A DNA stretch of 64,000 bases. Source: Clostridia bacterium. GTDB taxonomy: Bacteria > Bacillota > Clostridia > UBA1381 > UBA9506. The stretch lies in NCBI GenBank assembly GCA_017546245.1, contig JAFYXI010000034.1, forward strand, positions 929-64,928. The letters are read 5' to 3'. Below the pieces are notes generated by a model. The model searched no databases and was not told the origin of the DNA. It saw only the letters and a program-made list of their open reading frames with translations. Position numbers and translations under genes: made by a program. The stretch's first letter is position 1. Each line of letters starts with the position of its first letter. Below, in pieces: positions 10,936 through 63,649 of the stretch.

Positions 10936-13900
10936 ATGATGAAAAAAGCATTAGCTGTATGCTTGGCTTTCTGCATCGTGTTGTCTGTATTGATTCCGAT
11001 GGGTATTGCTGTCAAAGCCGAAACACAAATGTCGCAGGCAGAAACGATACTTTATGAAGATTTTGAAACTGCAACTTTGGCAGATAGCATTTATGACGAA
11101 AACGGAAATTATAACACTAATAATGATATAGGTGGTTTTAATGGCTGGCAGGACGGAACGAAAAACAAAAATCCGTTAAAGCCATATGACACCAACAGGG
11201 TTGTTAATGTTGCAAAAATCGTAGATGAAGGAGAAAATAAAGCCGGCAGTTTTATTTATACAAAAGCCGGCTCAGAATCTAACGATAATTTGCAGTATTA
11301 TATCAAAAAATCAACTCTCAAGGCTGTCAGCACAGGAATTGTTGTTGTTAAAATGCGTGTAAAGCCTACTGCACAGGCAGGAATGCTGCTTGTAAATTTA
11401 AGTGGTGCAGCAGCACAGGCATCTCCATACATAACCTTTTGGCTTGATAAAAAACGCATGGCAGGCGATATTGTTTCTACTGCTAATGGTTCACTTACCA
11501 CCATGCAAGAAAATATGTGGACTGATTATGAGATACATATTAATTTTGACAGCCGTACAGCAAAAATATATGCAGGCGAAGAGGAAATTAAAAATACAAA
11601 AACAGCCCTTCCTTCTTCGCTTACGCAAATAACTTCCGTTTCTATCGGCTTGCATAGAACTCAGGGAGCATGGGCAGCAGGACATGGTTGGTTGGTTGAT
11701 AACATCGAGGTTGTTGCAATTCCAAGGTCTGACGCAGTTATAGTTCCTACCGACGAGCTTCTTACAAATAAAGCAAAACTTATATTTAACAACGAACCTG
11801 AAAGTCTAAGTACAGAAAACATAAGCATTAAAGCAGAAAGCGGAGTTGTTAGGGCATCTGCTGTCGAGGCGGTATCGGGTGATGGTAAATCATTTGTTGT
11901 AACCTTTCCTAAAAATCTAACGCCTCAGACAGATTATACGGTAATTTTAGACGGAATTACCGATAAATACGGAGGCAGTCTGACAAATAAAGAAATTACA
12001 TATACTACCCCGGCAACGGGAAATATTTACTATGTTTCTCCGAACGGAAACGATAAAAATGCAGGAACAAAAGCTGCTCCGTGGAAAACTGCATACCATG
12101 CTGCTAAAAAAGCTGCAGCAGGCGATACGGTAATTTTTGAAGACGGAATATACAGAGAAACTGAATATACTGTCGTCGAAAATAACGGTACAGCAGGCAA
12201 GCCTATTACATTTAAGGCACAAAATCCTCACAAGGCAATAATTTTTTACGGTGAAAACTGCAGAACAAGACAAAAATTCAGAATTCACGACAAGCAATAT
12301 ATAAATATAAGAGATTTGTACTTTACTCAAGAGAGCACGTCACTTTATGAAGACGGTGCTACGCTTGAAACCGCAGCAACTTCTGATATATTTATTAACG
12401 TAATCAGATCGAGCTACTGTGAGGTTACAGGCAATAAAATTGTAAAGGCATTTGAAGAGGGCATAAAGGGGTATTGTTCAAACTCAATTACCATTGCAAA
12501 CAACGAGATATACGATATGAATCATGAGGGTATTGACTTGTTTGCGGTAATAAATCCTGATGTTTGCGCAAATAAGGTTATAAACTTCGGCCGTGATGCC
12601 TTTATGATAAAGGGTAATTCGGCAAACTGCCGTATTTATAATAACTATGCCCATAACGATAAAATGGTAACAACCGGTACAGCCTTTGATATAGGCGGTT
12701 CATCTGACGGAACAAGCCCTATATGTACCAAAGAGAATATTGGATTCGAAAACCATAACAGTATATTTTATAATAATGTTGTGTATGCAATTGATATTGA
12801 CGGAACACCGAGTATAGGTGCAGGCTTCAGCTTTTTGGGAGCTAAAGACTGTCATTGCTATAATAATACGGTTGCAGGAACACGATATGGCATACGTTTT
12901 CAAGTTCCTACAGACAGCGACTGGCAGTGGTGGCCAAACTCTGTAAATCCGACAATTAAAAACAACATTTTAGCAAATATTCAATACACATACAGTGATA
13001 ACAGCGGTGATATAAAGCCTAATCCTGAAAATGTTATAAGAGATTACAATTTGTTTTATAATTGCAGCTTTAACAGCGAATACAAAGCAACTGACGAGCC
13101 GAACAGTATAGTTTTAAGCTCATCAGATGATTTGTTTGCAGCTTATGGCACAGATTTCAGAATAAAGCTTAATTCAAAAGCTAAAGGGGTAGGCACAGCA
13201 CTTGCTGACACCTATCCCGGATTTATAGGATATGCCGAGGAAGACAGAACAAGCCCAAACGGCAGCTATTATAAAGACTTTGAATATGACCCGAATAGAG
13301 TTATAGATGTAAAAATTGATTTAATCGATTATAACGGCAATGAAAGAACGGCTTGGGATATTGGTGCATATGCAGCCGGTGACTGCATAAAAGAAATTTA
13401 TGCGTCGCAATATGATACCGTAAGCGGTTTGCCGGAGGGATATTCGTGGGAATATTCAACGCAATATACAGGTGAACAGATAATAACAGGAACAGATGCA
13501 AACGGCAGTCAGGCTAAATGTCTCCTTAAAGTAGGTACAAACGGTGTTTATGTTGCAGAAGATATTAAATATAAAAAAGCATACGACACCGCAGTTTTAG
13601 CTAACGGCATTGACGGCAAAACAACAGTTTTGCTTAAAATGACAGACCAAAGTACAAAAGAATTTGCTGTAAACTATGACCTTAATGCTAACAAATCCGG
13701 AGTTTATAAAGTTTTAGGAACTATCGACGGATTTAGCGAAAAAATTCCGGTTATAGTTACTGTGGCAGCCGAAGAAGAAAATAAAATTTTAGAAACCTAT
13801 AAAGATGCGCGTGTTATATTAGAAGACGGCACGTGGGTGGATACAAGCAAGCTTGGTTGCCAGTATCACGATGTAATCACAAGCAAAGCACTTGTGCATT

Positions 13901-21249: not shown

Positions 21250-24200
21250 TTATTTAACTATATCAACCTCTACATCATTGCACAGAGGTTTAAATGTTCT
21301 GTCTTCCATTATCATAAGCTTGCATATATCAGCATTGCTGTTAGTGTAGCTTATGCTGTTTGCTCCGGCTTGCGGATTTTTAACAGATATTAACTCTACC
21401 ATTTTACCGCTGTCTGAATACAGTGCGGCAAACAGTTTTATATTGTTTGCGCTTACTCCTGCCAGATTAAAGCTTATGGTATTATTCGAAGCTTCGGCAT
21501 CAGATATTGCAAAATCTACCTCTTCCGGCGGATTCGGCAGAGTAGAAATGCCGATTTCTGCTACACAGTCATTTTCAAACGAGAAGGTCACATAATATGT
21601 TATATCCGGTGCGAGCGAGTAGTAATAATCACCGTTTTCGTCGCGTGAGCGTGACATATAGTTGCCGTCTTCGTCATAAACTGACGGGGAATACATAAAC
21701 TCAGGATATGTTATATAGGTTCTGCCCTGTGCATCAGCAGGCTGTGTAAACTCGATAGTTACGTCCTTATATCTTTTATATGTATTACCGTCATGAAGCT
21801 TTACGGGAATTTTAACTGTGTTATATCTTGCCTCTATGGTGTCTTGCATACCTACAGTTACGGTTTTTTCTGCGCCGTAAATTTTTTCTGCTTCGCTATC
21901 TTCGCTGCCTAAGGTTATAAACGGCTTAATGGTGTAGGTTTTGCCTTTTTCTAACAAACTGGTAGCAATAGTTTCGTATGCTTTATCGGTATAATATTTA
22001 TCTACATATCTGATTATTTCAGATTTTGTGATACCTGCATCATTAGTATATTCTATACCGAATTCAAGCTCGTATACTTCGTACGGAGCTGTCACATAGC
22101 ACTCAATTACAGGGCAACCCCAGCTTGCGTCATAATAAACATCAATTAATTCTGTACCAAGCTTTGCCTGCGTGGTTGATTTTTCGAGAGCAAATTTTGC
22201 CTTTGGTGCAGCCCATTCTTCATAACCCTTAAGAGGCTCGGTTATTATAAAAGATTTTCCTGCTTCGAGTTCAAACAGTGAGCGTCCGTCGAAAGCATAT
22301 GTCCATTCGCCGTTTAAGTATATAAGTATATCGGTGTTGCACATTTCGGGTGTTATTACGCGATACAGAGCAGTTTCGGGAATGTCAACCTCGAATATAT
22401 TAACATTTTCGTCGGTTGTATATTCAGTTCCTAAATTAAGTGTTGCTGTTTCGGCTTTTGTAATTACAAGCTCCATATCCTCGCCCGGAACGAGAAGATA
22501 CTGTGTGCCTGCTTTTCCTGAAAAATATGCATCTGTGCCGACCGGAATAGCCAGATAAGATTCTTCGCTTGACGAAACTTCTATCTCTATGGTGTTATCA
22601 GCATAAGCACCGCCGCCTGACGCGCTGCCTGCTAAAAGCTCGATGTCTGCATAATTTTCTTCTGTGTCTTGTCTTGGGATTAATTCAATATTTGCGCTAT
22701 TATCGCCTGAGTTGTCGTAGCCTTCGGGAATGTCAGATTCAGCAGAGCCTGAGCCGTCATTTTCGGGAACAGAAGGCATAGGAATTACAATAGTTGCACC
22801 GCCGCCTGTGCTGCCATCGTCACCGCTTGCAGAGCCGCCTTCACTGCCTTCATCGCCGTTTCCGGTTACCGGTCTGCCCATTCCGCCGGTTCCGCCACTG
22901 CCGCTGTTTGGGTCTTCGGATTCACCGTTGTTTTCGCCATCACCCTCGTCATCTGCGGGCAATATTTTGCTTATTTTATAAAGACCGTCTTCGGGAGCGG
23001 TAAAGTTATAGTAAAAATCTGCCGATACGGTTTTGTTTGTTTCTAATTCTATATCCTGAACAGCAACCGAAACAAGAATAATCTCCATCTGACAAGATTC
23101 ATCGTTATCATAGGTACACTTAATTTCTAACGGCTCTCCTGCTTCGATATATACCAATGTCTTTGTGTAACTGTATTTGCTTACATAAAAGGATTTTTCG
23201 CCTAAAGCAGCCACAATTGAGCTGTAATTATAATCGTAAACTTTTTGCATAGACAGCTCGTAATAGCCGCTTACATCGGCTGTGCAGTATACATAGGTAG
23301 GCTTGTTATTGCCTGCTATATCAACTGTGCCGTTGTCTTTTATATATGGGGTGGTTACTCTAATATCGTTTGTATAACCGTCGCCCGACCATGTGTAATG
23401 AGTGCCTCGTAAGGTGATATATACAGGAATATTCTTTTTAAGCTCAACTGTTACATAGTTAAAGTCTGAATCGTCGGTTTCGTAAAGAACCTCATCGTCT
23501 GTATAGATTTTTATTTCGTTACAGAAGCATCTGTCGCTTGTAAATTTATACAATCCGTCTTCTTCGGGAGTGAATGAAAATGCATATGTTTTTCCTGATA
23601 CCCATTCAAAATATGATTCTACATCATATGTAAGAGCAACAGGGGCAGGGGGAGCATATTTTGAAACGCTTATCTCTGCCGCATCGCTCATTAAGATGAG
23701 CAACCAGTCACCCTTTTCCATTTCGCGTGTTTCGCATGCAAGTTTGCTGCCATCATCATTTACAAAATCGTAACTATCGCATTTTGAAAAATCAAATTCG
23801 TAAGTATCGGTTTCGGGTGCACAAAAAGCAATGTAGTAATAGTAATTTCCGTAACGCGGATATTGTTTAGACGGTGTTACGGGAGTATCAAGACTCATTG
23901 TTTCGATAAATTCGGCATTTAATGTAAATTCCTCGTCGATAACCTCTGCTACAGTGCTTTCATTACTAACTTCTACATAATAGTTTCCTGACGGAAGCAC
24001 ATATGAGGTTTCGTAAATGCTTAAATAATATGTGTCTTCGTCACTTTGCAATACTGCATGCATTCCTGAGCCTTCTAGGGTGATGTATGCCGGTTGCTCC
24101 ACGTTTAAATAAAAATATTTTGACGCATCCTGACCGATATAATAGCTTGTACCATATTCAAGCTCGTCAGGGACTGTGTATGTAACCGAAAGGTCGTATT

Positions 24201-25131
24201 CACCCCTCATATCGGCAGTATCTAAATAGTAAGTGCCGGGGAAGAGCGGCTCTTCAATTGCTTGCCCGTATATTGAGTTCTGTGAATTAAATATGTAATC
24301 ACCATCGCTGTTATAAAGCTTAAAACTGCCGTATAACTCTTCGGGCTGTGAATATTCAAAAGAATACAAGCCGTCTTTAGAGACTGTGAACGAGCAAAGA
24401 CCAATGTAGTCAGATACATTTATCAGCTTGTCTCCGTCAAGCGGATTTGTGGTTATAGTCGGCAGAATATTTGCAGCCGCAGGACCAAAGCTGATGGTGG
24501 TTGACAAATCGCTGCCGTCATATGTGCTTATTAAAAATGTAATGTTTTGCTTTGCAGTATAGTATTCATACTTATCTACATTGTAGTCGCGTGGATATGA
24601 ACCTATTTTTATGTTATTATATTCGTCAGCGGCAGATATGCTGTAAAATCCTGCTGCGGCTGTTGTTACAGTAACTGCTGCACGGCTTTTACCTACTAAA
24701 TCTAAAGTGCCGTTTGGCAGTTCGTCTAAATAAAAGTGAGGCATTCCGTCATCGCTGACAGTAAAGCTTTTTCTCACACCGTCATAGCAGGCATCCCACG
24801 GACAAGAGGTGGTGAACAAAACATATGCCTGATATGTTTCGCCTGCTAAAAGCTCTGAACTGCTGAAGGAGTAGGCATAGGTTCCGCTTGAATGCTGCAT
24901 ATCTTCTGAAATAGGAGTTGTACCTGTTCCTTCGTGATATACCGAAAGCCTGACACCACGGTTTTCGGTGTCGCTGTCGATATAATACGTTATGGTTATT
25001 ATTCCGTCGGCTTCTGTTATGCTTTCTACCTCTGCAAAACAGCACGGACTTGCAAATACGGCTGTGGGCATTATGCTGAAAATGAGCATAAATACAATCA
25101 GCCACGATAATAAATGCTTTAGCTTTTTCAT
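21250..25131 (-). CDS. Giant secreted protein with an N-terminal CC-motif domain, many PPC-like repeats and the C-terminal shared module
   Basis: 1293 aa. Signal peptide then SPCCFAEVESI. There are at least 6 repeats carrying Y-x-F-T-x-P-x-x-G-x-Y-x-F-like strands (YAFSFTPEEDGLYKF, YYNFTAPEDGLYKI...). It has a G/S/D/E-rich linker and is paralogous to ORF 25304-28294. Confidence 0.7.
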   Translation of the reverse strand: MKKLKHLLSWLIVFMLIFSIMPTAVFASPCCFAEVESITEADGIITITYYIDSDTENRGVRLSVYHEGTGTTPISEDMQHSSGTYAYSFSSSELLAGETYQAYVLFTTSCPWDACYDGVRKSFTVSDDGMPHFYLDELPNGTLDLVGKSRAAVTVTTAAAGFYSISAADEYNNIKIGSYPRDYNVDKYEYYTAKQNITFLISTYDGSDLSTTISFGPAAANILPTITTNPLDGDKLINVSDYIGLCSFTVSKDGLYSFEYSQPEELYGSFKLYNSDGDYIFNSQNSIYGQAIEEPLFPGTYYLDTADMRGEYDLSVTYTVPDELEYGTSYYIGQDASKYFYLNVEQPAYITLEGSGMHAVLQSDEDTYYLSIYETSYVLPSGNYYVEVSNESTVAEVIDEEFTLNAEFIETMSLDTPVTPSKQYPRYGNYYYYIAFCAPETDTYEFDFSKCDSYDFVNDDGSKLACETREMEKGDWLLILMSDAAEISVSKYAPPAPVALTYDVESYFEWVSGKTYAFSFTPEEDGLYKFTSDRCFCNEIKIYTDDEVLYETDDSDFNYVTVELKKNIPVYITLRGTHYTWSGDGYTNDIRVTTPYIKDNGTVDIAGNNKPTYVYCTADVSGYYELSMQKVYDYNYSSIVAALGEKSFYVSKYSYTKTLVYIEAGEPLEIKCTYDNDESCQMEIILVSVAVQDIELETNKTVSADFYYNFTAPEDGLYKISKILPADDEGDGENNGESEDPNSGSGGTGGMGRPVTGNGDEGSEGGSASGDDGSTGGGATIVIPMPSVPENDGSGSAESDIPEGYDNSGDNSANIELIPRQDTEENYADIELLAGSASGGGAYADNTIEIEVSSSEESYLAIPVGTDAYFSGKAGTQYLLVPGEDMELVITKAETATLNLGTEYTTDENVNIFEVDIPETALYRVITPEMCNTDILIYLNGEWTYAFDGRSLFELEAGKSFIITEPLKGYEEWAAPKAKFALEKSTTQAKLGTELIDVYYDASWGCPVIECYVTAPYEVYELEFGIEYTNDAGITKSEIIRYVDKYYTDKAYETIATSLLEKGKTYTIKPFITLGSEDSEAEKIYGAEKTVTVGMQDTIEARYNTVKIPVKLHDGNTYKRYKDVTIEFTQPADAQGRTYITYPEFMYSPSVYDEDGNYMSRSRDENGDYYYSLAPDITYYVTFSFENDCVAEIGISTLPNPPEEVDFAISDAEASNNTISFNLAGVSANNIKLFAALYSDSGKMVELISVKNPQAGANSISYTNSNADICKLMIMEDRTFKPLCNDVEVDIVK

Positions 25132-25303: not shown

Positions 25304-28294
25304 TTATTCGCACTCGATTTCGTTGCAAAGAGGATTTAAATTTTCATCCCACAAGAACAGCTTGCAGTTATATGCACCCGGTGCATTGTCAAATGTAATG
25401 CTGCCCGAAGCAAGAGGATTTTTAACAGGCTTAAGTTCTTTCATTTTTTCACCGTCATAAAGTGCGGCATATAACGTTGAATCGTTTGGAACAGTACCTG
25501 TGATGGTATAATCAACACCGTTTGATGTTTTTGAGCCGCTTATTATCGGCTTGTTTTTTGAAATTTTAAATTTTGCCTCAGGAATATACTCATCATCTGC
25601 ATACTTGTCGCTGGTTGAAGCGGCTATATAGTATGTTCCTGCTTTAAGCTCAAATGTTACATTTTCTACGTTTTCGTATCTGACTAAATCAGTAACACTA
25701 ATCCAGCTACTGTCATCATAAAAATAAGTAAAGCCTGTTCCGTAATAATTGCCCGCAGCATCCAGTAAATCCTCAGAAAAGTCCTCGAATTTATATTCAC
25801 CGTCTTCTGTGATATTTATGCTGTAAAGCTTACATTTTTCGGTTGTTGTAACAAGAGAATCTAACCGGATTTCTGCTGTATCAACCTTGACGATGCTTGC
25901 GCTTATAGGATATTCAATTTCGTAATACGATGTCGAGCCTTCTTTAAAAAGAATTTCGTCGCCCGCATTTCCGCAGAAATATACAAAAGCTTCGCCTTCT
26001 GAGTTTTCGCAGCTGAAGGAGGTATCCTTATTGTTTTTAATAATAGGAGTAAAGAAATAACTGTATTCGCCTTCTTCTCTCCAGGTTGTTGCTTTATAAA
26101 ATGCTTTTCCTGTAATTTTATATACTCCCGTTTCGGGCAAAATTACCGAGTAATATGAGTTATCTTCTATTTTAAAGCTGTTCATATCTGTTATAGGTTT
26201 TGTAGCAGCAGTTTCAAAGTTAAGTGTTGCTTTACAATTTTGGTTGCGGTTAACCTCAATCTTAATTTCAACAGGATTGTCTTTGTCTACATAAAAACTG
26301 CTCGATACATCAGCATTGCCGTCGTTGCCTGCCCAACCATAGAGTTTTCCTAATGATTCACCGTTTAAGTAGGCAAATATTTCGTAATAATCACAGTTAA
26401 GCTCTTTAAGCGTGAGTGAAAAATTATAATATCCTGCCTCGGTCGGAGTAAACCGATAAAGCTTTGTTGCAGAATCAGAAGGATATGAACAATCAATATC
26501 TGTTGTTTCGGTCAGATAAGTATATTTTTCTTCGACCGTTATTTGAATGTTGGCATCTTTTAAAGTTTCGGTTAAGCCTGTCTGACGAAAACGGATATAT
26601 ACGGTTTCGTTTTCGTCTAAATCAACATATTCAAAATCATAATCTTCGGTACCGCGCTCGCATAAAACTGCATCTTCGGTATATATTTTTACACTTATCC
26701 AATCATCAGAGTTAAAAATAATTTTATAGCTATCCTTTTTGGGAGCGGTAAAAGAATAGATTTGCTTGTTTCCGTCTGAAAGTGTTGCAGAAAGATTTTC
26801 ACCAATGCTCAGAGTATCAGATTTTGGTGTATGCTTTGCTGCGGTAAAGTCGCTGCGTCTCCAAGAGAACAGTTTTGTTTCATCCTTTTTAAACTCGATG
26901 TATGCTAGACCTTCAAAGCTACCGTCGTCTACAGAAACAGAATTGGGGCAGAAGAATACATATTCTCCCGCTTCGGGTGCTTTTATTAAAGCATATTTTG
27001 TTTGCCATTCATCTGTGGAGGTTGCGTAAGAAAGAGCATCACCGATAGTTACTGTGGGAATGTCCTGCTTTGTAATAGAACCGCTTACACTTTCCTCCCA
27101 AGTAGACATACGAACTATATATTCTCCCTTAGGAAGCAGTAATTCGTCGTAGCTTGCCCAATATTCTATACCGCTTTCGATGTTGTAAAATACCATATCG
27201 CGTGATTCAAATGAGTCATAAATTAACGCATAGGTATCAAGTGTTAAGGTTTTGTGTATATAAGAGCCCGATATGGTTATTTCAGAGCCGAACTCCATAG
27301 CTTCTAATGCCTGATATGTTATGGTAGCGGCGGAACTGTCCTGTACCTGCAGATAATAAGTTCCGGGGTTTAAAAGTATTTCCATAGGTGTATATCGATC
27401 AATGGTGTTAATATTATTTCCGTTTTTATCATACAGACGAGCGAGGCTGTAGTTTGTGCTACCGTTAAGCTGTACTTTGTATACACCATATTTTGCGATG
27501 TCTATACGATAATAGTATTCAGTTTCGGTAAGGCCGTTAAAATCGTAAACAATATCTCCGCCTGACGGATTTTCTGTCTTTGGTGCTTCGGGCTCCATAG
27601 AAACAGGTGCAAATCTGAATTTGGTAGAAATGCTGTCAGAAGAATTGTATGTATCGCGTAATCTGATGGTAAAAAGCTCTTCTTGCCCTTCTTCTAAATA
27701 CATAAGCTTATAATTTGAAAAATTGTTTCCGCCAATGCTGTTTAAAACGACATCAGAGCCGTATGAAAGGGGGTCGGTGTCAATATGGGTTTTTTCTAAG
27801 CAATACAGTCCTGTTTCGTTTGCCTTTATATGTATTGCCTTATCAGCGGTTTGGGTAATGACAATTTCGTCGCTTAATTCATCGCCTATATCATATATTT
27901 GCATACTGCCGTTTTCTGAAACAAACTCCATTTGATTATAAAAATTCCAGCAGTTATAATCATTGCAAGATTTACAAGCTATGGCCACATAATAGGTTTC
28001 GCCTTTTAAAAAAAGCGAATTGTCAAACTCTGCACTGTCCAAGGTTTCTGTTTCTGACAAGTCAATGGTTTTTTTAGCTGAATAAGACCAGTGGGTTGTG
28101 CTGCTGTGCCAAATGCGTATATCTAAGCTTTTGTTGTCGGTGCTTGCCTGTAAATTCCAATTAACGACAATGTTTTCTGCATTTTGCACAATACTTTCTA
28201 TGCCTGGATGACAGCATTCTGCCGCGTGTACGGGGATTATAAGCAGCGAAGCCATCATACACAGCATAAGAGTTAATGAGATAACTTTTTTCAT
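25304..28294 (-). CDS. Giant secreted protein, paralogue of 21250-25131
   Basis: The start was reassigned to MKKVISLTL (ATG 28294-28292, RBS AAAGAGGA). Signal peptide then AECCHPGIESI. Repeats include YSFTAPKKDSYKI, LYRFTPTEAGYYNF and YYSVILPETGVYKI. The C-terminus is LYAALYDGEKMKEL...KLFLWDENLNPL. Confidence 0.7.
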   Translation of the reverse strand: MKKVISLTLMLCMMASLLIIPVHAAECCHPGIESIVQNAENIVVNWNLQASTDNKSLDIRIWHSSTTHWSYSAKKTIDLSETETLDSAEFDNSLFLKGETYYVAIACKSCNDYNCWNFYNQMEFVSENGSMQIYDIGDELSDEIVITQTADKAIHIKANETGLYCLEKTHIDTDPLSYGSDVVLNSIGGNNFSNYKLMYLEEGQEELFTIRLRDTYNSSDSISTKFRFAPVSMEPEAPKTENPSGGDIVYDFNGLTETEYYYRIDIAKYGVYKVQLNGSTNYSLARLYDKNGNNINTIDRYTPMEILLNPGTYYLQVQDSSAATITYQALEAMEFGSEITISGSYIHKTLTLDTYALIYDSFESRDMVFYNIESGIEYWASYDELLLPKGEYIVRMSTWEESVSGSITKQDIPTVTIGDALSYATSTDEWQTKYALIKAPEAGEYVFFCPNSVSVDDGSFEGLAYIEFKKDETKLFSWRRSDFTAAKHTPKSDTLSIGENLSATLSDGNKQIYSFTAPKKDSYKIIFNSDDWISVKIYTEDAVLCERGTEDYDFEYVDLDENETVYIRFRQTGLTETLKDANIQITVEEKYTYLTETTDIDCSYPSDSATKLYRFTPTEAGYYNFSLTLKELNCDYYEIFAYLNGESLGKLYGWAGNDGNADVSSSFYVDKDNPVEIKIEVNRNQNCKATLNFETAATKPITDMNSFKIEDNSYYSVILPETGVYKITGKAFYKATTWREEGEYSYFFTPIIKNNKDTSFSCENSEGEAFVYFCGNAGDEILFKEGSTSYYEIEYPISASIVKVDTAEIRLDSLVTTTEKCKLYSINITEDGEYKFEDFSEDLLDAAGNYYGTGFTYFYDDSSWISVTDLVRYENVENVTFELKAGTYYIAASTSDKYADDEYIPEAKFKISKNKPIISGSKTSNGVDYTITGTVPNDSTLYAALYDGEKMKELKPVKNPLASGSITFDNAPGAYNCKLFLWDENLNPLCNEIECE

Positions 28295-28347
28295 AATATA
28301 AATCCTCTTTTCATAAATAATTGAGTTTAAAGATGACAAAAATAAAT

Positions 28348-28417
28348 AAATTCTTATCTTTAACACAATTATAAATGAAATATGTGTTAATGTCAAGGAA
28401 AATTCTTATCTTTAACA
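28348..28417. promoter_or_regulatory. Candidate operator array in the divergent exoprotein/XRE promoter region
   Basis: The 18-nt direct repeat AAATTCTTATCTTTAACA occurs at 28348 and 28400 (52-bp phasing). It flanks the 8-bp inverted repeat TTAACACA (28360-28367) / TGTGTTAA (28383-28390). Confidence 0.4.
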
Positions 28418-54853: not shown

Positions 54854-54923
54854 ATTTTTTAACTGGGATATTCTTTATCTTCAGGGTTAACCTAATATCA
54901 TAAAAACCTTGGAGGTAAAACAA

Positions 54924-56174
54924 TTGCGCAAACCAATTTCACTAAAAAAGCGTTCGGTGATTTTTTTCTGTCTTTTTTTACTTTTATCGGCAGGAATCAC
55001 CGTTGATTGCTCTTTGCGGTATCCTGACTGCATAGATATATTTGAAGGCGAATTTTTAACAGACGACAATACCTCTTCAATTATTTTAGATATTCCTGCA
55101 TCAAACGAAGGTGTGCTGTTAGATGACGGAACAATATCGGGCGGCAGCTCAATACTGTCAGGCAGCTTTAATGCCGAGCTTAAGCTTTTCGGGATAATTC
55201 CCGTACGCACAATTCAGGTTGATGTTCACCCCAAAACTGAGCTTGTTCCCTGCGGCAATACCATAGGAATAAAAATTTTCACACAGGGACTTGTATGCGT
55301 AGGAACGTCTGAAATAAAAAGCACAGACGGCAAAATAACAAGTCCGACACTTGACTTTGACATACACGAAGGCGACATATTGCTTTCAGCAAACGGCACA
55401 CCGCTGGAAACAACAGAACAGTTGGCATCCATTGTAGAAAGCTCCTGCGGCAACATAATAAACTTTAAAATAGAACATGACAAAAAACAAATAATGCGTA
55501 AAATATCGCCCGTAAAAACACAAGACGGCTATAAGCTGGGACTTTGGGTGAGAGATTCTACCGCAGGCATTGGCACACTTACTTTTTATGATAATGAAAC
55601 AAAGCTTTTCGGTGCTTTAGGACATCCGATAGCTGACAGCGACACAGGAGCACTTATGCCCGTATCAAGCGGTACAATTTTAAACGCATCGGTGTTTGAC
55701 GTCAAAAAAGGCAGCCGAGGCGAACCGGGTGAGCTAAAAGGTGTTTTTTCAAATTCCGACGAATGTTTAGGATATATTAACAAAAACACCGAGCAAGGCA
55801 TTTACGGAAGCATCACACCTCATATGCTGCCGGAAACACACTCATCCATTCCCGTAGCATCAGGCAGTCAGGTCAAAGAGGGCGAAGCAACAATTCTGTC
55901 TAATGTAGACGGCAAAAACGTGCAGGAATTTTCTATCGAAATCCAGAAGATTATGCGCTATAATGCCAACGGCACAAAAGATATGGTTATTAAAATAACC
56001 GACCCTGCACTTTTAGAAAAAACAGGCGGTATAGTTCAGGGGATGAGCGGCAGCCCTATTATACAGGATGGAAAGCTAATCGGCGCAGTAACGCACGTTT
56101 TTGTTAATGATCCGACACGGGGTTATGGGATTTTTATTGAAAATATGCTGTCGGAGGCAGAGAAAATTAAATAA
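54924..56174 (+). CDS. spoIVB: Stage IV sporulation serine peptidase SpoIVB (S55)
   Basis: PDZ segment plus peptidase S55 blocks (GIGTLTFYD...[50 protein letters not shown]). TTG start at 54924, 5 nt after a GGAGGT RBS. Confidence 0.9.
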   Translation: MRKPISLKKRSVIFFCLFLLLSAGITVDCSLRYPDCIDIFEGEFLTDDNTSSIILDIPASNEGVLLDDGTISGGSSILSGSFNAELKLFGIIPVRTIQVDVHPKTELVPCGNTIGIKIFTQGLVCVGTSEIKSTDGKITSPTLDFDIHEGDILLSANGTPLETTEQLASIVESSCGNIINFKIEHDKKQIMRKISPVKTQDGYKLGLWVRDSTAGIGTLTFYDNETKLFGALGHPIADSDTGALMPVSSGTILNASVFDVKKGSRGEPGELKGVFSNSDECLGYINKNTEQGIYGSITPHMLPETHSSIPVASGSQVKEGEATILSNVDGKNVQEFSIEIQKIMRYNANGTKDMVIKITDPALLEKTGGIVQGMSGSPIIQDGKLIGAVTHVFVNDPTRGYGIFIENMLSEAEKIK

Positions 56175-56176
56175 TA

Positions 56177-56216
56177 AAAATGCTCGTCTACACTATATAG
56201 GCGGGCATTTTATTTT
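56177..56216 (+). terminator. Intrinsic terminator after spoIVB
   Basis: Stem AATGCTCG...CGGGCATT (one G-U pair) followed by TTATTTT. Confidence 0.5.
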
Positions 56217-56237
56217 ATGAAAACAGAGCGAATCGCA

Positions 56238-57005
56238 TCATCTTCTATAATTTGATGGCGAAACACCTTGTATCTTTTTAAATTTATTTGAAAAATAATA
56301 CATATTTTCAAAGCCACATCGTTCAGCAATTTCCGAAATGCTATATGATGTACCGATAAGTAGCTTTCTGGCTTTTTTGATTCGTTGTTCGGTGATATAT
56401 TGTAATACCGAAAGATTCAATTCGCGGCGAAACTTAAAATTGAGTGTGGATGCGTTTGTGCCTATACTGTGACATATTTGTTCAATAAGTATTTTGCCTG
56501 ATAAATTTTCATCTATATAAGCTATAGCAGAATTGACAAGGGTGTCGGAACAAGTTGTTTCTTCATAATTATTTCCCTTTGGATGGCTCTGAGAATAAAT
56601 CTGGAACAGTATGTCGAGAAGCAGATGCTCGCGGTATCCGGTAGATATTGCATCATCTCTTGAAAGTAAATTTTCCAGGTTCGTAATATTTGAAACAAAT
56701 CTCTGTTTGTCTGTAAAATTTATTTTTCCAAATGGTATTTCAATTTTATAGGGACAAACATTATTGCCCGTAAATTTTACATAAACGAACTCTATAGGCT
56801 CAATTACATTACGATGGTAATGAATGTAGTCTGGGAGAATATAACAGTCACCCGCAGATACCTTTTCTTTAATCCCATTTGTTTCTATAACAAAACTGCC
56901 TTTTTTGAGATAAAAAAGAGCGTGGGTTGGTTGATATCCGTCAGTTACATGGAATTCACTCCTGGTTGAATAGTTGGATTCTATAATTTTAAACGGAAAT
57001 TGCAT
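56238..57005 (-). CDS. AraC-family transcriptional regulator (cassette 1)
   Basis: 255 aa with an N-terminal cupin-like sensor and a C-terminal double HTH (IAERCGFENMYYFSNKFKKIQGVSPSNYR). Confidence 0.85.
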   Translation of the reverse strand: MQFPFKIIESNYSTRSEFHVTDGYQPTHALFYLKKGSFVIETNGIKEKVSAGDCYILPDYIHYHRNVIEPIEFVYVKFTGNNVCPYKIEIPFGKINFTDKQRFVSNITNLENLLSRDDAISTGYREHLLLDILFQIYSQSHPKGNNYEETTCSDTLVNSAIAYIDENLSGKILIEQICHSIGTNASTLNFKFRRELNLSVLQYITEQRIKKARKLLIGTSYSISEIAERCGFENMYYFSNKFKKIQGVSPSNYRR

Positions 57006-57108
57006 AAAAAAACCTCTGTTTATTGTTGGATTTTATAAGTTTTATTTTAGCATATTCTATTTTAATAGTCAATTGTGAGATGTATAATAGAGGAAAAGGA
57101 GTGGTTAT

Positions 57109-58455
57109 ATGAAACAGGTTACTTTAAATCTACAAAAGGAATATGAGTGCGATGTGCTTGTTTGCGGCGGAGGTGTAAGCGGTTTTGCGGCAGCGGTATC
57201 AGCTGCAAGATGCGGAGCGAAGACAATGCTTATTGAATCCGGAGGCTTTCTTGGCGGAACAGCAACAAAAGGTCTTGTAGCACCTTTTATGACTTGCTAT
57301 GATGCTGAAGGGAAAGAAAGAATTATAAAAGGTCTGTATTCAGAACTTGAAAAAAGACTTCTTGAAAAAAACGGAGCTGTTGCGCCTGAAAAATGCTCAG
57401 GTGGTGATAGTTACAGCGGATATCGCACAAAAGGGCATATCGGTGTAATGCCTTTTGATACAGAAACTATAAAAATTATTTTTGAACAAATGTGCCTTGA
57501 GGCAGGAGTGGAACTTTTGTATCATACCAATCTGTTAGGTTGTGAAAGAGAAGAAAAAAATATCTCAAAAGTATATGCGGCAGATAACAATGACATTATC
57601 TCCATAAGCGCAAAAATGTTTATTGATACTACGGGAACGGCGACTCTGGCTTATAAGGCAGGCGCTCAGACAATGCGCGGAAATGATGACGGAATACTGC
57701 AGACGGCATCTATGTTCTTTGTAATTTCAGGAGTGGATAAACAGATTTTGGACGAGTATATGAACAAGAACGAAGAAATGCGTGCAAGATATTTTATGGA
57801 TATTATCGAGCAGGGTAAAAAAGATGGTACATTCCCTTGTGGTACAAGGAAAATAAGAATATTTAAAAATCCCAATGGTACTTTTACGGTAAATATGGCA
57901 CAAATCGATGAGCAAATCAACGAACTGGATAACAGGGAAATTACAAAGGGCGAAATAAATCAGCGACTGCAAATTCAGAAACTTATTGAATTTATGCGTA
58001 AAAACATTCCGGGACTTGAGAATGTTGAACTTTTTGCAACAGCTTCAGACCTTGGTATAAGGGAAAGCAGACGCATTGTAGGCAAAACCCTTTTCTGCCT
58101 TGAAGATATTAAACAGGCTAAAAAATTTGACGACCGTATTGCGGTTTGCGCAAACTCTATAGATATGCATCAGAAAGACAGAGTGAGTTATACGGCTCAT
58201 ACCGGTAAAAACTATTATATCCCGCTTTCCTGTCTTATTTCAAATAGTGTAGATAACCTGCTTACTGCAGGAAAAAGTCTGTCGGCTGATAAATATGCTT
58301 TTGCTGCTGTAAGAGTTATGCCGCCCTGTATTGCAATGGGCGAAGCTGCAGGTATAACTGCAGCACTTGCGGCACAAAAAAGCGTTGCAGCAGGCGATGT
58401 CCCGCATGAAGAAGTGCAGAAAATACTTATTGATAACGGTGCATTTCTAGGATAA
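57109..58455 (+). CDS. FAD-dependent oxidoreductase (FAD_oxidored-like; cassette 1)
   Basis: 448 aa with an N-terminal dinucleotide-binding motif [30 protein letters not shown]. Confidence 0.75.
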
Positions 58456-58463
58456 CAGAAATT

Positions 58464-58484
58464 TGTTGTCCCCTATTGACAACA
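58464..58484. repeat. 21-nt palindromic junction motif, copy 1
   Basis: TGTTGTC-CCCTATT-GACAACA, identical to 61366-61386. It lies 8 nt after the oxidoreductase stop and immediately before the spoIVB remnant. Confidence 0.8.
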
Positions 58485-58619
58485 GTGGTGTCAGGCTCGC
58501 CGATAATTCAAAATGGCCGAATTGTGGGAGCTGTGACACACGTATTTGTGAATGATCCAACACGTGGATACGGCATATTTATTGAGAATATGTTAGCTGA
58601 GGCAGGAAAAATCAAATAG
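58485..58619 (+). pseudogene. Displaced spoIVB 3'-end remnant 1 (last about 42 codons, no 5' part)
   Basis: Manual translation gives (VV)[42 protein letters not shown]. It aligns with the C-terminus of intact SpoIVB, starting at the catalytic GMSGSP motif. Confidence 0.85.
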
Positions 58620-58621
58620 GA

Positions 58622-58662
58622 AAGGGACTGTAAAAAAATCTTACTTTTTTTACAGTCCCTTA
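58622..58662. terminator. Bidirectional terminator after remnant 1 / AraC gene 2
   Basis: Palindrome AAGGGACTGTAAAAAAA...TTTTTTTACAGTCCCTT. Confidence 0.65.
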
Positions 58663-58667
58663 ATTTA

Positions 58668-59378
58668 TTAAAGTGCAGAATTTTGTCTGAATTTAAGCGG
58701 GGAAATCCCGACTGCTTTCTTAAAAGAATTACTGAAATAATAAACATCATTATAGCCACAGTTTTCACCAATTTGACTTATTGAAAGGTTTGTGTTTACC
58801 AAAAGCTCTTTTGCTTTACTGATGCGAAAATCAGTTATACAATTTATTGGCGTTATACCATAATGCGACTTGAATTTGTGTATAAGTGTCTGTATTGAAT
58901 AACCTGTTATTTGAGCCAGTGTTTTAAGATTTATATTTTCCGAAAAATGTTCACTTATATATTCATACGCTGGAGCAATGTCGTTTTCTTTTGTGATTTT
59001 TTGCTTTGAAGTTAGGAGTATATCATTTACAAAATGTTCAATGATACGAAGCGGCGTCTTTTTTAAAATGGCATTTTCTATGTGCAATACTGTGTTTCTA
59101 AGCCTATTGATGTCAGTCTCATCATATTCCAATATTTCTGTATCGCAGATCGAATGAGAAAACCTAATGATTATATATGATATGGGCTTTATTATTCTTT
59201 TACGAAATGACACACCTTTTCTGAAAACGACAGGGTTAAAAGGAAGAATTTTTTGAGATGTGTTTTTTGTGGTGTATTCATATTCACCGCACAATGTAAT
59301 AATAAGACTGGTCGATCTGTGTGTGCCGCATTCAATTTCAAACTTTTCTTTGTATGAAATATCACAATGTAATACCAT
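58668..59378 (-). CDS. AraC-family transcriptional regulator (cassette 2)
   Basis: 236 aa with a C-terminal AraC double HTH (IGENCGYNDVYYFSNSFKKAVGISPLKFR). Confidence 0.85.
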   Translation of the reverse strand: MVLHCDISYKEKFEIECGTHRSTSLIITLCGEYEYTTKNTSQKILPFNPVVFRKGVSFRKRIIKPISYIIIRFSHSICDTEILEYDETDINRLRNTVLHIENAILKKTPLRIIEHFVNDILLTSKQKITKENDIAPAYEYISEHFSENINLKTLAQITGYSIQTLIHKFKSHYGITPINCITDFRISKAKELLVNTNLSISQIGENCGYNDVYYFSNSFKKAVGISPLKFRQNSAL

Positions 59379-59516
59379 ATATTATCTCCTTTAATATTTT
59401 ATAAAAAATCTAAAATTCTCTCTATTTATATAGTGTATAATTTATTATATAATATAAAATATAAAAACACAAGAGATTGGGTGATAATTTTGAAAAGGGA
59501 TGTTAAATCAAAAGAA

Positions 59517-61334
59517 ATGAGTTACGATGTTGTAGTAGTTGGTGGCGGACTTTCGGGAATGTGTGCAGCTATCGCCGCTGCAAGGCACGGAGCAAAAACA
59601 GCACTTATCCATGCTCGGCCCGTATTCGGTGGAAATGCCTCAAGCGAAATAAGAATGCATATATGCGGTGCATCTGCAAATATGGCAAAACCAATGCTTG
59701 AAGAAAGCGGGATTTTATATGAATTGTTGCTCGAAAATAAAGCATTCAATGATTATTTTAATTACAGTATTTGGGATATGATTTTGTATAAAAGAATAAG
59801 AGAACAGGACAATCTAAGCTTTTATCTCAATACTGTTATGGACGATTGCACTGTGAAAGACAATATTATAACGAGCATCATGGCTTATCAGCAAACAACT
59901 GAAACACGATATAAAATAACAGGTAAAATTTTTGTTGATGCAACAGGGAATTCCACACTTGGATATCTTGCAGGTGCAGAGTATAAAACAGGCAGTGAAT
60001 CAAAAAAAGAATTTAATGAGCCCCACGCACCAACTAAATCGAATAATAACACAATGGGAAACACTCTTTTATTTAAAGCTGTTGACAGGGGAACATCAAT
60101 TCATTTTAAACGCCCCGATTTCGCATATACTTTTACAGAAGAACAGTTAAAATACCGTACACACGGTAAGGTCAGCGAACAGACAAAAAAATATTTAGAC
60201 GAAGAAGAAATACGAATTACATCTGTTGGCTCTGCTACAATAGATACCGGTTACTGGTGGATAGAGCTGTGCGGTAATACAGATGATATTATCGATGAAT
60301 ATGAAGAAATTCGTGATGAACTGGTTTGTTGTATATACGGTATTTGGGACCATATAAAAAATGGCGGTAATCATGGCGCTGAAAGCTATGATTTAGAGTG
60401 GGTTGGAATGCTACCGGGAATGCGTGAAAGCAGGCGTTTGGTGGGTGATTATATGCTCAATGAAAATGATATTCTGGAAAACAGACAATTTGATGATGCT
60501 GTTTGTTATGGTGGTTGGCCTATGGATATACATACCCCCAACGGTCTTTATGATTTTGACAAAAAACCATCAGAAGTTTACTTTTTTGACGGGACATATA
60601 CAATTCCATATCGTTCGTATTACTCAAAAAATATAGAGAATCTTATGATGGCAGGAAGGAACATAAGTGCAACAAAAATGGCAATGGGTTCTACTCGCGT
60701 TATGGGAACATGCGCTGTTGGTGGTCAGGCAGTTGGAACAGCGGCAGCTATGTGTATAGATAATAACTGCCTTCCGCATGAAATTTTAAATCATATACAT
60801 AAATTACAACAAATTCTCCTAAAAGATGATTGCTATATCCCAAATGTTGCAAACTGTGATAAGTATGATAAGGCAAGAGAGGCAACCGTAAAAGCATCTT
60901 CCGAAAGAGAAGGTTTTGAAGCAGCAAATGTTGTAAGTGGCATAACAAGACAAACCGAAAGCAACACGAATTTATGGGTGTCTGATGGTGTGGCAAAAGG
61001 CGGAGAAACTCTGAGCTTTGAGTTTGGAAAGGAGTATAGTGTTTCGCAAATTAGGCTTGTTTTTGACACGAACTTTAACTATTCCATAAAGCAGACACAA
61101 AATTCGAAAAGACAAAAACAACAAAGAAAAGGAGTTCCGTCCGAGCTCGTAAAAGATTACAGCGTTGAATTATGGAAAAACAATTCGGTTGTTTTTCGAA
61201 AAAATATTTGCGAAAATCATCAACGTTTGAATGTTATTGATTTCCCCTATATTTCTTGTGATAAGCTTACAATCACCATAACAGAAACCAATGGAGCAAA
61301 AGATGCACATGTTTATGAAGTGAGAATATATTGA
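59517..61334 (+). CDS. FAD-dependent oxidoreductase with a C-terminal F5/8 type C (discoidin)-like domain (cassette 2)
   Basis: YDVVVVGGGLSGMCAAIAAARHGAKTALI dinucleotide motif. The C-terminal roughly 150 aa are discoidin-like (SVSQIRLVFDTNF...AHVYEVRIY). The start is uncertain: ATG 59517 or TTG 59490. The track start at 59433 overlaps a TGTATAAT -10-like box. Confidence 0.7.
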   Translation: MSYDVVVVGGGLSGMCAAIAAARHGAKTALIHARPVFGGNASSEIRMHICGASANMAKPMLEESGILYELLLENKAFNDYFNYSIWDMILYKRIREQDNLSFYLNTVMDDCTVKDNIITSIMAYQQTTETRYKITGKIFVDATGNSTLGYLAGAEYKTGSESKKEFNEPHAPTKSNNNTMGNTLLFKAVDRGTSIHFKRPDFAYTFTEEQLKYRTHGKVSEQTKKYLDEEEIRITSVGSATIDTGYWWIELCGNTDDIIDEYEEIRDELVCCIYGIWDHIKNGGNHGAESYDLEWVGMLPGMRESRRLVGDYMLNENDILENRQFDDAVCYGGWPMDIHTPNGLYDFDKKPSEVYFFDGTYTIPYRSYYSKNIENLMMAGRNISATKMAMGSTRVMGTCAVGGQAVGTAAAMCIDNNCLPHEILNHIHKLQQILLKDDCYIPNVANCDKYDKAREATVKASSEREGFEAANVVSGITRQTESNTNLWVSDGVAKGGETLSFEFGKEYSVSQIRLVFDTNFNYSIKQTQNSKRQKQQRKGVPSELVKDYSVELWKNNSVVFRKNICENHQRLNVIDFPYISCDKLTITITETNGAKDAHVYEVRIY

Positions 61335-61365
61335 TTTTTAGTTAAAAACTAACATTTAGTAAAAG

Positions 61366-61386
61366 TGTTGTCCCCTATTGACAACA
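61366..61386. repeat. 21-nt palindromic junction motif, copy 2
   Basis: TGTTGTCCCCTATTGACAACA, identical to 58464-58484 and again directly before a spoIVB remnant. Confidence 0.8.
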
Positions 61387-61512
61387 GTCGTGAGCGGTTC
61401 ACCAATAATACAGAACGGCAAAATCGTCGGAGCTGTAACTCACGTATTTGTGAATGATCCAACACGTGGATACGGCATATTTATTGAGAATATGCTCAAA
61501 GAAGTCAGCTGA
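61387..61512 (+). pseudogene. Displaced spoIVB 3'-end remnant 2
   Basis: Manual translation gives (VV)[39 protein letters not shown]. It shares a 54-nt perfectly identical block with remnant 1 (61441-61494 = 58539-58592). Confidence 0.85.
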
Positions 61513-61858
61513 AAAATGGGATGTAAATTTATCCCCCCACACACAAAATATGTAGTTTTTAAATTGTTTTTTCAAAAAAGTAAAAAACATTTCAAAAAGA
61601 AAAGGAATCTTAACTTAATGATATTTGAAATTCCCCTCTCTTTTTTATCTGCTTAAAAAGTTTAAAACAATGAATATTGGCATTATATTTCGTTGAGCGA
61701 GTAAATAGAGAGGGGGCTGTCAGATGAGATTATTTTTTTATTAAAAATTACCGATTTTATTAAAAATTGCTCGTTCTTTTTAACAGTGTTGATTTTGCTG
61801 TTGAGACGTGTTAAACTATACTAAGATTCAGTACTATTTGACGAAAGGAATATTTTAT

Positions 61859-63394: not shown

Positions 63395-63447
63395 TATAAC
63401 CTCTTGCAATGTTTTAAATACATACCGATATGATTAAATCAAACAAA

Positions 63448-63595
63448 GGGGCTGTCTCAATAATCATATATAGCGAATAATTATGCAAGGTTTGGTTGTA
63501 GGAAATGGATTTATCCATTCCGCGGAACGCATTAATGCGTTCACTACAATATTTTGTGCATAAATATTTATAAAAAATGATTATTGAGACAGCCC
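63448..63595. repeat. MITE/REP-like palindromic element, copy 2 (inverted relative to copy 1)
   Basis: Perfect 20-bp terminal inverted repeats GGGGCTGTCTCAATAATCAT / ATGATTATTGAGACAGCCCC. The core at 63498-63547 is the reverse complement of the copy 1 cloverleaf. Confidence 0.8.
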
Positions 63596-63649
63596 CTTTT
63601 TAATTTATAAGTATCCTTAAGAATACTCGGCATAAATAATCCTTTTATT

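Follow-up and report, generated by a model that had tools for sequence, protein, structure and literature searches.

Cassettes without a recombinase arrayed behind spoIVB in a Clostridia bacterium, and their probable relation to large serine recombinase elements

The window analysed here is a stretch of 64,000 nucleotides from a Clostridia bacterium (assembly GCA_017546245.1, contig JAFYXI010000034.1, positions 929 to 64,928, forward strand). It carries an intact gene for the sporulation protease SpoIVB, and behind the gene stand two cassettes, each with an AraC-family regulator and a flavin adenine dinucleotide (FAD)-dependent oxidoreductase, and each followed by a palindrome and a further copy of the spoIVB 3' end. 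An earlier note, written from the letters alone, read the locus as the product of serial insertion at the catalytic-serine codon, and the comparisons reported below support that interpretation on its main points. Arrays of the same anatomy occur in other Clostridia, and the homologous junction elsewhere in many cases directly adjoins tandem genes for large serine recombinases (LSRs). We consider it probable that the window units are non-autonomous cassettes, flanked by attachment (att) sites, that accreted at an LSR attachment site within spoIVB and were moved in trans or by recombination between arrays.

Anatomy of the window locus

The features of the locus, in window coordinates with the strand in brackets, are these (T0, T1 and T2 are the three copies of the gene's tail):

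54909..56174 (+): spoIVB, intact (PDZ and Peptidase_S55), from open reading frame (ORF) and Pfam; annotated from 54924 by gene callers on identical contigs (416 aa)
56020..56070 (+): left junction (attL, attB-like), ...GGTATAGTTCAGGGGA/TG/AGCGGCAGCCC, with the putative crossover TG at 56044-56045, in the Met codon preceding the catalytic Ser codon at 56046-56048
56043..56174 (+): resident tail T0, MSGSP...SEAEKIK-stop; Ser codon at 56046, Met-Ser being ATG AGC
56177..56211 (+): intrinsic terminator 3' of T0, a strong hairpin (z = -5.3)
56238..57005 (-): cassette 1 AraC-family regulator, 255 aa; 100% aa identical in locus L227
57109..58455 (+): cassette 1 FAD-dependent oxidoreductase (PF12831), 448 aa; 93% identical in L227, 86% in L230
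58464..58490 (+): right-end motif of cassette 1 (palindrome 58464-58484) plus GTG; 58490 is the exact last position of identity with L227
58488..58619 (+): orphan tail T1, VSGSP...AEAGKIK-stop, in frame, GTG before Ser; 58491 from the Ser codon
58622..58661 (no strand): bidirectional terminator between T1 and the second AraC gene, 17-bp perfect stem (z = -7.9)
58668..59378 (-): cassette 2 AraC-family regulator, 236 aa, from ORF and Pfam
59433..61334 (+): cassette 2 FAD-dependent oxidoreductase (PF12831), 633 aa, probable start 59481 (617 aa); C-terminal extension of about 150 aa with a weak DUF7402 match
61366..61392 (+): right-end motif of cassette 2 (palindrome 61366-61386, an exact copy) plus GTG
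61390..61512 (+): orphan tail T2, VSGSP...ENMLKEVS-stop, 3 codons shorter than T1 and with another ending; 61393 from the Ser codon

The resident spoIVB gene is uninterrupted. Its product of 421 aa matches PDZ weakly and Peptidase_S55 over the full length, at positions 3-210 of the 210-position Pfam profile. The 3' end of the gene is repeated twice downstream (43 codons in T1, 40 in T2), both times on the same strand and in frame, so that the three like-oriented tails reported earlier are present where they had been placed. T1 and T2 are 87% identical over 134 nt, and over the conserved 37 codons T0 is 68% identical to T1 and 73% identical to T2 at the nucleotide level. The palindrome TGTTGTCCCCTATTGACAACA is exact at both of its sites, and each copy lies 3 nt 5' of a GTG that stands in for the Met codon. 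As the earlier note had it, the palindrome precedes each orphan tail; no further copy was found in the 64-kb window with up to 3 mismatches allowed, and 100 shuffles expect none.

Both modules have the same order, i.e., terminator, AraC gene (minus strand), oxidoreductase gene (plus strand), palindrome. Their cargo was described as distantly related, and it is: the AraC proteins are 33% identical over 158 aa and the oxidoreductases 25% identical over 481 aa. The second oxidoreductase has the C-terminal extension seen earlier. The discoidin-like domain assigned to that extension did not stand, discoidin families being absent from the Pfam matches of the protein, in which the extension gave a sub-threshold DUF7402 match (E = 1.6e-4). 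Neither cassette encodes a recombinase of its own in addition to its regulator and its oxidoreductase, and in both the cargo genes stop 8-31 nt short of the motif with no recombinase debris between. In the 64-kb window no integrase, transposase or relaxase family was matched by Pfam in any ORF of at least 120 aa, a check supplemented by a gene-context table for window 44-54 kb. No Rfam family or tRNA was found at the window cassettes, no composition contrast between cassettes and flanks was seen in the window, and no convincing terminator hairpin was found in the window after T2.

The same junction in other Clostridia and beside recombinase genes

A SpoIVB protein scan, with one genome taken per species, gave 80 loci, of which the best match was 53% identical; no close host relative was among them. 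In 13 of these 80 loci, tblastn with the tail peptide found one to three extra tails 3' of spoIVB, spaced 0.5-4 kb apart. They share one orientation without exception, and almost all begin one residue ahead of SGSP. Almost all orphan tails are also preceded by a sequence that can be recognised as a version of the window motif: TGTTGTCC, 3-5 nt, TGACA, 6-8 nt, NTG, Ser codon. The motifs of L001 and L003 match that of the window at every position over 23-24 nt, and the L002 motif differs at the first base only. The palindrome thus holds up as a junction motif, with the qualification that the perfect palindrome is a lineage-specific version of a more general, imperfect motif. The cargo of the arrays differs by genome and includes AraC with a glycyl-radical enzyme (GRE) and its activase, glycoside hydrolases, a helix-turn-helix protein, and many small ORFs. 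Since arrays recur with unrelated cargo, lineage-specific local duplication is excluded and a recurrent site-specific process is indicated.

Several oddities of the arrays are recorded here. In L049 (16196-16435) a longer spoIVB fragment stands in the place of a tail; it includes 36 codons upstream of the serine, has no motif, has SGSP changed to SDRP, and resembles a duplicated left junction more than a displaced tail. In L002 (15119-15200) and L049 (20290-20360) the activase of an AraC, GRE and activase cassette ends ...IVVPY-stop with the stop inside the motif; identity is 66% between the two activases, 26% between the GREs and 37% between the SpoIVB proteins. These ...VVPY-stop endings suggested that the palindrome might be the terminal part of a conserved gene, an idea that was dropped because unrelated genes or no ORF occupy this place in other cassettes. 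Orphan tails in L227 (11380-11511 and 15604-15795) have been called as separate 'Peptidase_S55' proteins of 43-63 aa and could serve as a cheap marker of arrays. Arrays would also account for the small 'Peptidase_S55' fragments that gene callers report 3' of spoIVB.

The earlier note preferred serial site-specific insertion to local duplication, and both the divergence of the cargo and the tail arrays with differing cargo in the 13 genomes bear this out. In the duplication account, a unit of spoIVB tail, AraC gene and oxidoreductase gene was duplicated in tandem and then diverged in place, which would explain the repeated module order and the 134-nt direct repeats at 87% identity. The two modules are not sister paralogues, however. 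At 33% and 25% identity they are much farther from each other than from relatives elsewhere: in L227 those of module 1 reach 100% (AraC) and 93% (oxidoreductase), and the oxidoreductase of module 2 has one at 81%. The tails argue in the same direction. Within arrays their differences are mostly synonymous, with a pooled proportion of synonymous differences (pS) of 0.51 vs a nonsynonymous proportion (pN) of 0.056 over 15 arrays. In the window pS is 0.96 for T0-T1, 0.86 for T0-T2 and 0.50 for T1-T2, and all three frames are intact. Differences that are synonymous to saturation are not expected of unselected copies. This makes unselected copies diverging in place unlikely and indicates that the tails evolved as working gene ends in separate lineages; comparison of the tails shows them to be of independent origin. 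Target-site duplication, considered as a source of the window tails, was ruled out by the saturated synonymous sites and the few aa changes. With the same architecture recurring in many genomes with unrelated cargo, we give in-place duplication almost no credence; by every such comparison, the window array is not a local duplication.

Matches between the window tails and foreign tails are consistent with import. T1 is 87-88% identical in nucleotides to the resident tail of L001 and to the orphan tail of L002 (in both loci SpoIVB is 53% identical to the window's), the ending of T2 (KEVS-stop) is shared in type with the resident tail of L002 (KEVG-stop), and T0 has 100% aa and 81% nt identity to the tails of L003.

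The orphan tails or the palindrome might also be functional themselves, the tails as small peptides translated from TTG or GTG, the palindrome as a terminator or operator that shields the cassette genes. ORFs of 47 and 44 aa do start at a TTG within the palindrome, and on the minus strand the palindrome with its T-rich run scores as terminator-like. Against this, no ribosome-binding site is visible upstream of the tails, the hairpin is weak (-5 to -7 kcal/mol, z = -0.8 for the first copy), no Rfam family matches, and the motif of other genomes is imperfect, with no start codon shared upstream of it. Nor is the palindrome a general terminator, being confined to the two window junctions and to homologous junctions elsewhere. 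A function of this kind is, in our judgement, an extremely remote explanation of the locus.

The motif and tail also occur in viral contigs. Five true motif-plus-tail matches were found there (L081, L083-L086), to which L087 was added by searching GenBank phage records for the tail; L082, a chance pattern match, was discarded, and the GenBank 'phage' records L088-L090, which contain whole spoIVB genes and no LSR, were uninformative. All six contigs with motif and tail lack the spoIVB body, and in every one LSR genes lie directly upstream. Where the contig is long enough there are three LSR genes in tandem, encoding proteins of about 470-570 aa that are about 29% mutually identical, and the genes end about 45-105 nt before the motif. 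In L083 each of the three proteins has Resolvase, Recombinase and Zn_ribbon_recom domains. A pattern scan of metagenomes returned at least 120 contigs, in which a junction was judged only with at least 1.5 kb of upstream sequence; among the matches listed, 44 of the 62 judgeable junctions were LSR-adjacent and 18 were without a recombinase. The parts of large elements that could be seen (L213 34-9253 and L107 6462-12521) have defence and stress genes beside those of the recombinases. Encoded there are a BrxL-like Lon ATPase, an Mrr nuclease, a UmuC-like polymerase and a PemK toxin, as well as an ImmA/IrrE peptidase and an apparent XRE-type repressor.

Autonomous-looking and recombinase-less units stand side by side in L124, where an LSR trio, the motif and a tail are followed by a 2.2-kb recombinase-less cassette (hydrolase, membrane protein and toxin-antitoxin pair), the same motif variant and a second tail. 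In L156 the host-type tail of L124 and a related cassette come directly after spoIVB, with no LSR element between. The two contigs appear to differ naturally by one stacked element. In L118 a cassette has a truncated recombinase and a UmuC-like gene, and is plausibly a decay intermediate. Directly after the orphan tail, another serine-recombinase gene starts in L083 (6843-7871) and a truncated one is present in L118 (1068-2276, reverse strand); the left side of a unit is thus another place where recombinase genes can sit or decay.

The position of the crossover follows from comparison of junctions. L081 and L083 are the same element, identical through ...GACACACTC GTG (...TTGACACACTC GTG), after which the tails diverge (AGCGGCAGT... 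vs TCAGGAAGT...), and one abundant element family precedes several different host tails. The codon that precedes Ser is ATG at 79 of 80 resident junctions and NTG at 123 of 126 orphan junctions (GTG 76, ATG 40, CTG 7). On these comparisons and codon counts, the exchange would start after the first base of the codon and end before the Ser codon, with TG as the shared dinucleotide. The TG itself is invariant, in contrast to the preceding base and the Ser codon that follows, which are not the same on the two sides. The window TG is moreover the centre of a dyad, TATTG-10 nt-TG-10 nt-CAATA. An imperfect dyad of this kind is expected of LSR sites. The placing of the insertion at the catalytic-serine codon in the earlier note is thereby supported: the alignments show the apparent crossover at the TG directly preceding that codon, and this fixes the right end of the units.

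Cassette 1 occurs in other hosts. The closest relatives of its oxidoreductase form a graded series, with a 93% identical copy (P0004) in L227-L229. The host of L227 has a SpoIVB that is 50% identical to the window's and different genes upstream. The order in L227 is spoIVB, cassette 1, tail, another cassette (AraC with a glycoside hydrolase of family 38, GH38), tail, and then an IS200-type transposase gene. Nucleotide identity between the window and L227 changes along the locus:

spoIVB body: about 15-70% in 60-nt steps
tails: 75-82%
56196-57035: 100%
most of the oxidoreductase gene: about 87%
58236-58490: 100%, stopping exactly after GTG, where TCA meets AGC

In L230, whose SpoIVB is 40% identical, the cassette 1 type stands third in an array that has at least three orphan tails, and there the AraC and the oxidoreductase are 73% and 86% identical to those of the window. 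These comparisons show what is, judged by its sequence, cassette 1 at the same site in unrelated hosts. They also show that relatives do not all carry the window's arrangement: cargo and cassette number vary, and cassette 1 is first in L227 and third in L230. The nearest relative of oxidoreductase 2 (81%) lies just past the last tail of the L233 array. AraC and oxidoreductase homologues are also present as ordinary loci without tail or motif in L231 and, for relatives of both window modules, in L232. The homologues in ordinary loci and in other arrays suggest that cargo is drawn from a common pool of chromosomal catabolic modules. The IS200-type Y1 transposase gene of L227 (15809-16627) directly follows the third spoIVB tail, and beyond it are AraC and enzyme pairs without detectable tails.

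How the cassettes may have been formed and moved

We propose that the catalytic-serine region of spoIVB is the chromosomal attachment site of integrative elements that would be common in gut Clostridia (Oscillospiraceae and relatives), the autonomous ones having three tandem LSR genes at their right end. The recombinases would act on the spoIVB site by recombining the element's attP (motif/TG/element-borne tail) with the spoIVB attB (...GGIVQG-A/TG/SGSP...). The right end of the element, TGTTGTCC-N(3-5)-TGACA-N(6-8)-TG (the perfect palindrome in the window), would abut the displaced host tail after insertion. spoIVB would then read into the element's tail and terminator, and the host tail would remain behind the element's motif. 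Since spoIVB is intact, a replacement for its last ~43 codons and its terminator must sit on the left side of the element. Both arms to the right of TG encode the same peptide, so the new left junction would be attB-like and the right one attP-like, and this would allow stacking and hence arrays. Each incoming unit, large elements included, would supply a replacement tail, as suggested by the divergence of the tails and the logic of conservative recombination. The window units may derive from larger elements stripped to cargo and ends, or may have been built by recombination with chromosomal modules. Their spread would be due either to a triple-recombinase element acting in trans or to recombination from array to array, and tails inside one genome would be further reshuffled by gene conversion. 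The predicted circle junction of cassette 1 is ...CCCCTATTGACAACAGTGG/TG/AGCGGCAGCCCTATTATA, and loss of cassette 1 is predicted to leave the chromosome junction ...GGTATAGTTCAGGGGA/TG/TCAGGCTCGCCGATAATT.

Several results weigh against this proposal. First, tblastn with three LSRs found none in the 64-kb window, so that the absence of a recombinase remarked on in the earlier note extends to this family. Second, the exact window motif is present only at LSR-less cassettes (twice in the window, and in L001, L003, L128, L226 and L227, with one mismatch in L002 and L230), and the nearest LSR-adjacent motif (L114) has 2 mismatches to it. Confinement of the exact motif to recombinase-less cassettes fits a distinct non-autonomous lineage and does not pin down the cognate recombinase of the window units. 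Third, the left end of a full LSR element, which is expected to have the element-borne tail, was not recovered in an all-against-all comparison of the DNA 3' of resident junctions, which yielded only cassette pairs and same-species pairs. Fourth, in the two cross-genome pairs the left tail was not inherited together with its cassette. For the window/L227 pair, pS is as follows:

left tail: 0.84
right tail: 0.80
spoIVB body: 0.79
cargo core: 0.43

The left tail is thus host-like. For the L016/L230 pair, homology starts only past the tail and terminator. The host-like left tails mean that the model of element-supplied tails needs added gene conversion. Finally, the 100%/87%/100% mosaic of cassette 1 against L227 shows that homologous recombination also acts on the cassettes, and the conspecific contigs described below all carry the window's array and give no sign of current mobility.

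Gene conversion between direct repeats could well overwrite imported tails, and the fit of a native tail to its native protein may favour such events. Within-genome tails are often nearly identical (L227 95%, L230 99%, L233 ~98%), and the tails of L230 all share the host-specific ending ...FAELMMDKTEK. The resident tail of L227 is itself composite: its centre equals the first orphan tail of the same genome, and its 3' end and terminator resemble those of window T0. The resident-tail terminator (AATGCTCRYYTA...TAGGYGRGCRTTTT) is related across distant genomes (window 56177-56211, L227 ~9067-9105, L016 and L230), and the repeated 'frame' may therefore consist of motif, tail and terminator.

On a rival reading, the cassettes would spread by homologous recombination after DNA transfer, with tail, terminator and motif as portable homology, and LSRs would matter only for the large autonomous elements that first made the tails. 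Such exchange agrees with the identity mosaic of cassette 1, with the homogenised tails of L227, L230 and L233, and with the two cross-genome pairs, both of which share DNA from after the left tail and terminator to the end of the motif and have host-like flanking tails. It leaves unexplained why every cassette retains a non-coding motif of 24 nt that is found in identical form at the end of the recombinase elements, how a first cassette entered a genome with a single tail, and why the right boundary of identity falls on the exact LSR dinucleotide. As the whole account of the cassettes, homologous exchange seems to us improbable.

A second reading is that the units are fossil scars, immobile remnants of recombinase-bearing elements whose recombinase was deleted, and that the array is inherited vertically with nothing moving today. 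The window has no recombinase, the L118 cassette with its truncated LSR is a plausible intermediate of such decay, and some orphan tails elsewhere are degraded (L053_3, L080_1 and L230_3). The conspecific contigs, from about six samples and at least 99.8% identical, all have the identical array. They were retrieved through neighbouring proteins, as an exact look-up of the SpoIVB protein was empty, probably owing to a differing start codon; being near-clonal and structurally alike, they cannot test polymorphism. The window itself, in contrast, has two perfect motifs and two intact orphan-tail ORFs, and its cargo genes end 8-31 nt before the motif without debris. No fewer than eight loci retain one and the same motif variant of 23-24 nt at LSR-less cassettes whose cargo is unrelated, and the 100% identical stretches shared with L227 speak of very recent exchange between hosts with 50% identical SpoIVB. 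On balance, we think it unlikely that the cassettes are only scars.

The conspecific contigs have breaks near the array. L094 and L095 end at window 61797 and L105 starts at 61797, and in L103 window 61818 onward is joined to an unrelated scaffold with Ns that encodes a zinc-ribbon-like ORF. The interval 61797-61818 lies about 300 nt beyond the last tail and may mark either the boundary of a rearrangement at strain level or an artefact of assembly. Elsewhere in the window, a 43-nt inverted repeat (84% complementary, 69 nt apart) lies at 63445-63599 between xylose-isomerase-like and ParA-like genes. Very large genes, including those for SLH-domain and beta-helix surface proteins, are clustered at 6598-31816, and three ORFs of 1030-1423 aa (10936-15207, 21250-25131 and 25304-28396) have no Pfam match at E <= 1e-5.

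Returning to att-flanked cassettes accreted at an LSR site, a bolder form of that proposal is that the recombinase-less units are a self-standing 'hitcher' cassette lineage with its own perfectly palindromic att variant. Together with the recombinase trios they would make up a gene-capture platform at the catalytic-site codon of spoIVB, similar to the staphylococcal cassette chromosome (SCC) or to integrons, through which gut Clostridia would exchange regulated catabolic and defence modules, and the spare tails would let the C-terminal 43 residues be swapped and re-homogenised. We put this forward tentatively, its chances being somewhat below even.

Comparison with known systems

In staphylococci, the serine recombinases of SCC integrate into the 3' end of rlmH without inactivating it, and elements accrete in tandem with repeated att sequences between them. 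Recombinase-less SCC units are thought to be moved in trans, and cargo is swapped mosaically. The spoIVB arrays resemble this system in that the 3' part of a conserved gene is targeted yet kept, and in tandem accretion, repeated att sequences, recombinase-less units and mosaic cargo; SCC is their closest analogue. The differences are several. The target is the catalytic-serine codon of spoIVB, and about 43 codons would have to be regenerated, compared to a few in SCC. The autonomous elements have three recombinase genes instead of ccrAB or ccrC. The hosts are anaerobic gut Clostridia, and the cargo in the window consists of AraC-regulated catabolic enzymes rather than resistance genes. The window lacks the defining features of SCC, i.e., an attB in rlmH (orfX) and CcrAB or CcrC. 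According to two preprints, SCC composite islands at the 3' end of rlmH (orfX) include pseudo-SCC elements that lack ccr (bioRxiv 10.1101/336396; bioRxiv 10.64898/2026.03.31.715619).

As to its class, the window locus has no LSR and so is no autonomous LSR element, and its att sites share the expected dinucleotide. The window motif differs at 2-4 positions from motifs that lie 20-100 nt 3' of LSR trios, and the junction is at the same TG. The units are att-flanked and recombinase-less, the same unit is found in unrelated hosts (L227 and L230), and L124 pairs an LSR element with a cassette; in these respects they are of the type of cis-mobilisable elements (CIMEs) or pseudo-SCC. CIMEs at the 3' end of fda, of the type of the integrative and conjugative elements (ICEs) ICESt1 and ICESt3, and tycheposon arrays depend on tyrosine integrases. 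So do islands in tRNA and tmRNA genes (the Islander principle), in which the target end is regenerated and a displaced fragment marks the far end (PMC4383910). The spoIVB arrays share with CIMEs and ICESt1/ICESt3 at fda, with Islander islands (PMC4383910) and with tycheposons (bioRxiv 10.1101/2020.12.28.424599) an element that restores the split target, a displaced fragment at the far end, tandem arrays with repeated target fragments, and att-flanked non-autonomous units. In those systems the identical core is several to tens of bp long, whereas a 2-bp core is implied at spoIVB, where the repeat is long only because the target is protein-coding.

Ambroset et al. (2016, PMC4701971) describe streptococcal ICEs that have serine integrase genes in a triplet and disrupt their target, which is mutT, traG or hsdM, on insertion. 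The likeness to the spoIVB elements lies in three tandem LSR genes at one extremity and in one orientation to the target gene, and in site-specific insertion in a protein-coding gene with very short direct repeats (2-8 bp) (PMC4701971). The difference from the ICEs as described there is that spoIVB stays intact through a replacement tail, and the available text makes no mention of arrays of recombinase-less cassettes at the ICE sites (PMC4701971). The visible parts of the spoIVB elements carry BrxL, Mrr, UmuC-like and PemK genes.

The skin element (in sigK, with SpoIVCA) and SPbeta (in spsM, with SprA) are similar in that an LSR targets the coding sequence of a sporulation gene in endospore formers. 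Both interrupt their genes and are excised in the mother cell to rebuild them; spoIVB acts from the forespore. Unlike those genes, spoIVB is never interrupted, and in the window it is a complete ORF. Integrons share with the arrays an ordered series of short cargo-only units, each ending in an imperfect palindrome, at one chromosomal platform. They differ in that the spoIVB cassettes have their own regulator, promoter region and terminator and a 130-nt gene fragment between them, and there is no IntI, attI or Pc. No tyrosine recombinase family was matched by Pfam in the window, and by inspection the motif TGTTGTC...GACAACA does not match the R''/R' sites of attC (RYYYAAC/GTTRRRY). As for tandem segmental duplication, in which the units should be each other's closest relatives, the module comparisons given above point elsewhere.

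A literature search, with most subscription journals outside it, found no paper that links spoIVB to an integrase, a serine recombinase, an attachment site or a genomic island, and SpoIVB is not mentioned in the supplements of the LSR catalogue paper. If confirmed, the arrays would be a second well-defined cassette-chromosome-like system beside SCC, in abundant and hard-to-culture gut anaerobes, and would show small regulator and enzyme modules moving between species that otherwise share little. They would offer a clean case of an element that regenerates 43 codons, including the catalytic serine, of an essential developmental protease, with gene conversion between resident and displaced ends visible in the same case. 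They would also provide a natural attB/attP pair with triple recombinases, raise the question of why three paralogues are needed, and possibly yield integration tools for Clostridia. In sum, the principle of SCC-like accretion is known; what appears to be new is the target at the catalytic serine of spoIVB, the unusually long regenerated end, the triple recombinase module and the metabolic cargo.

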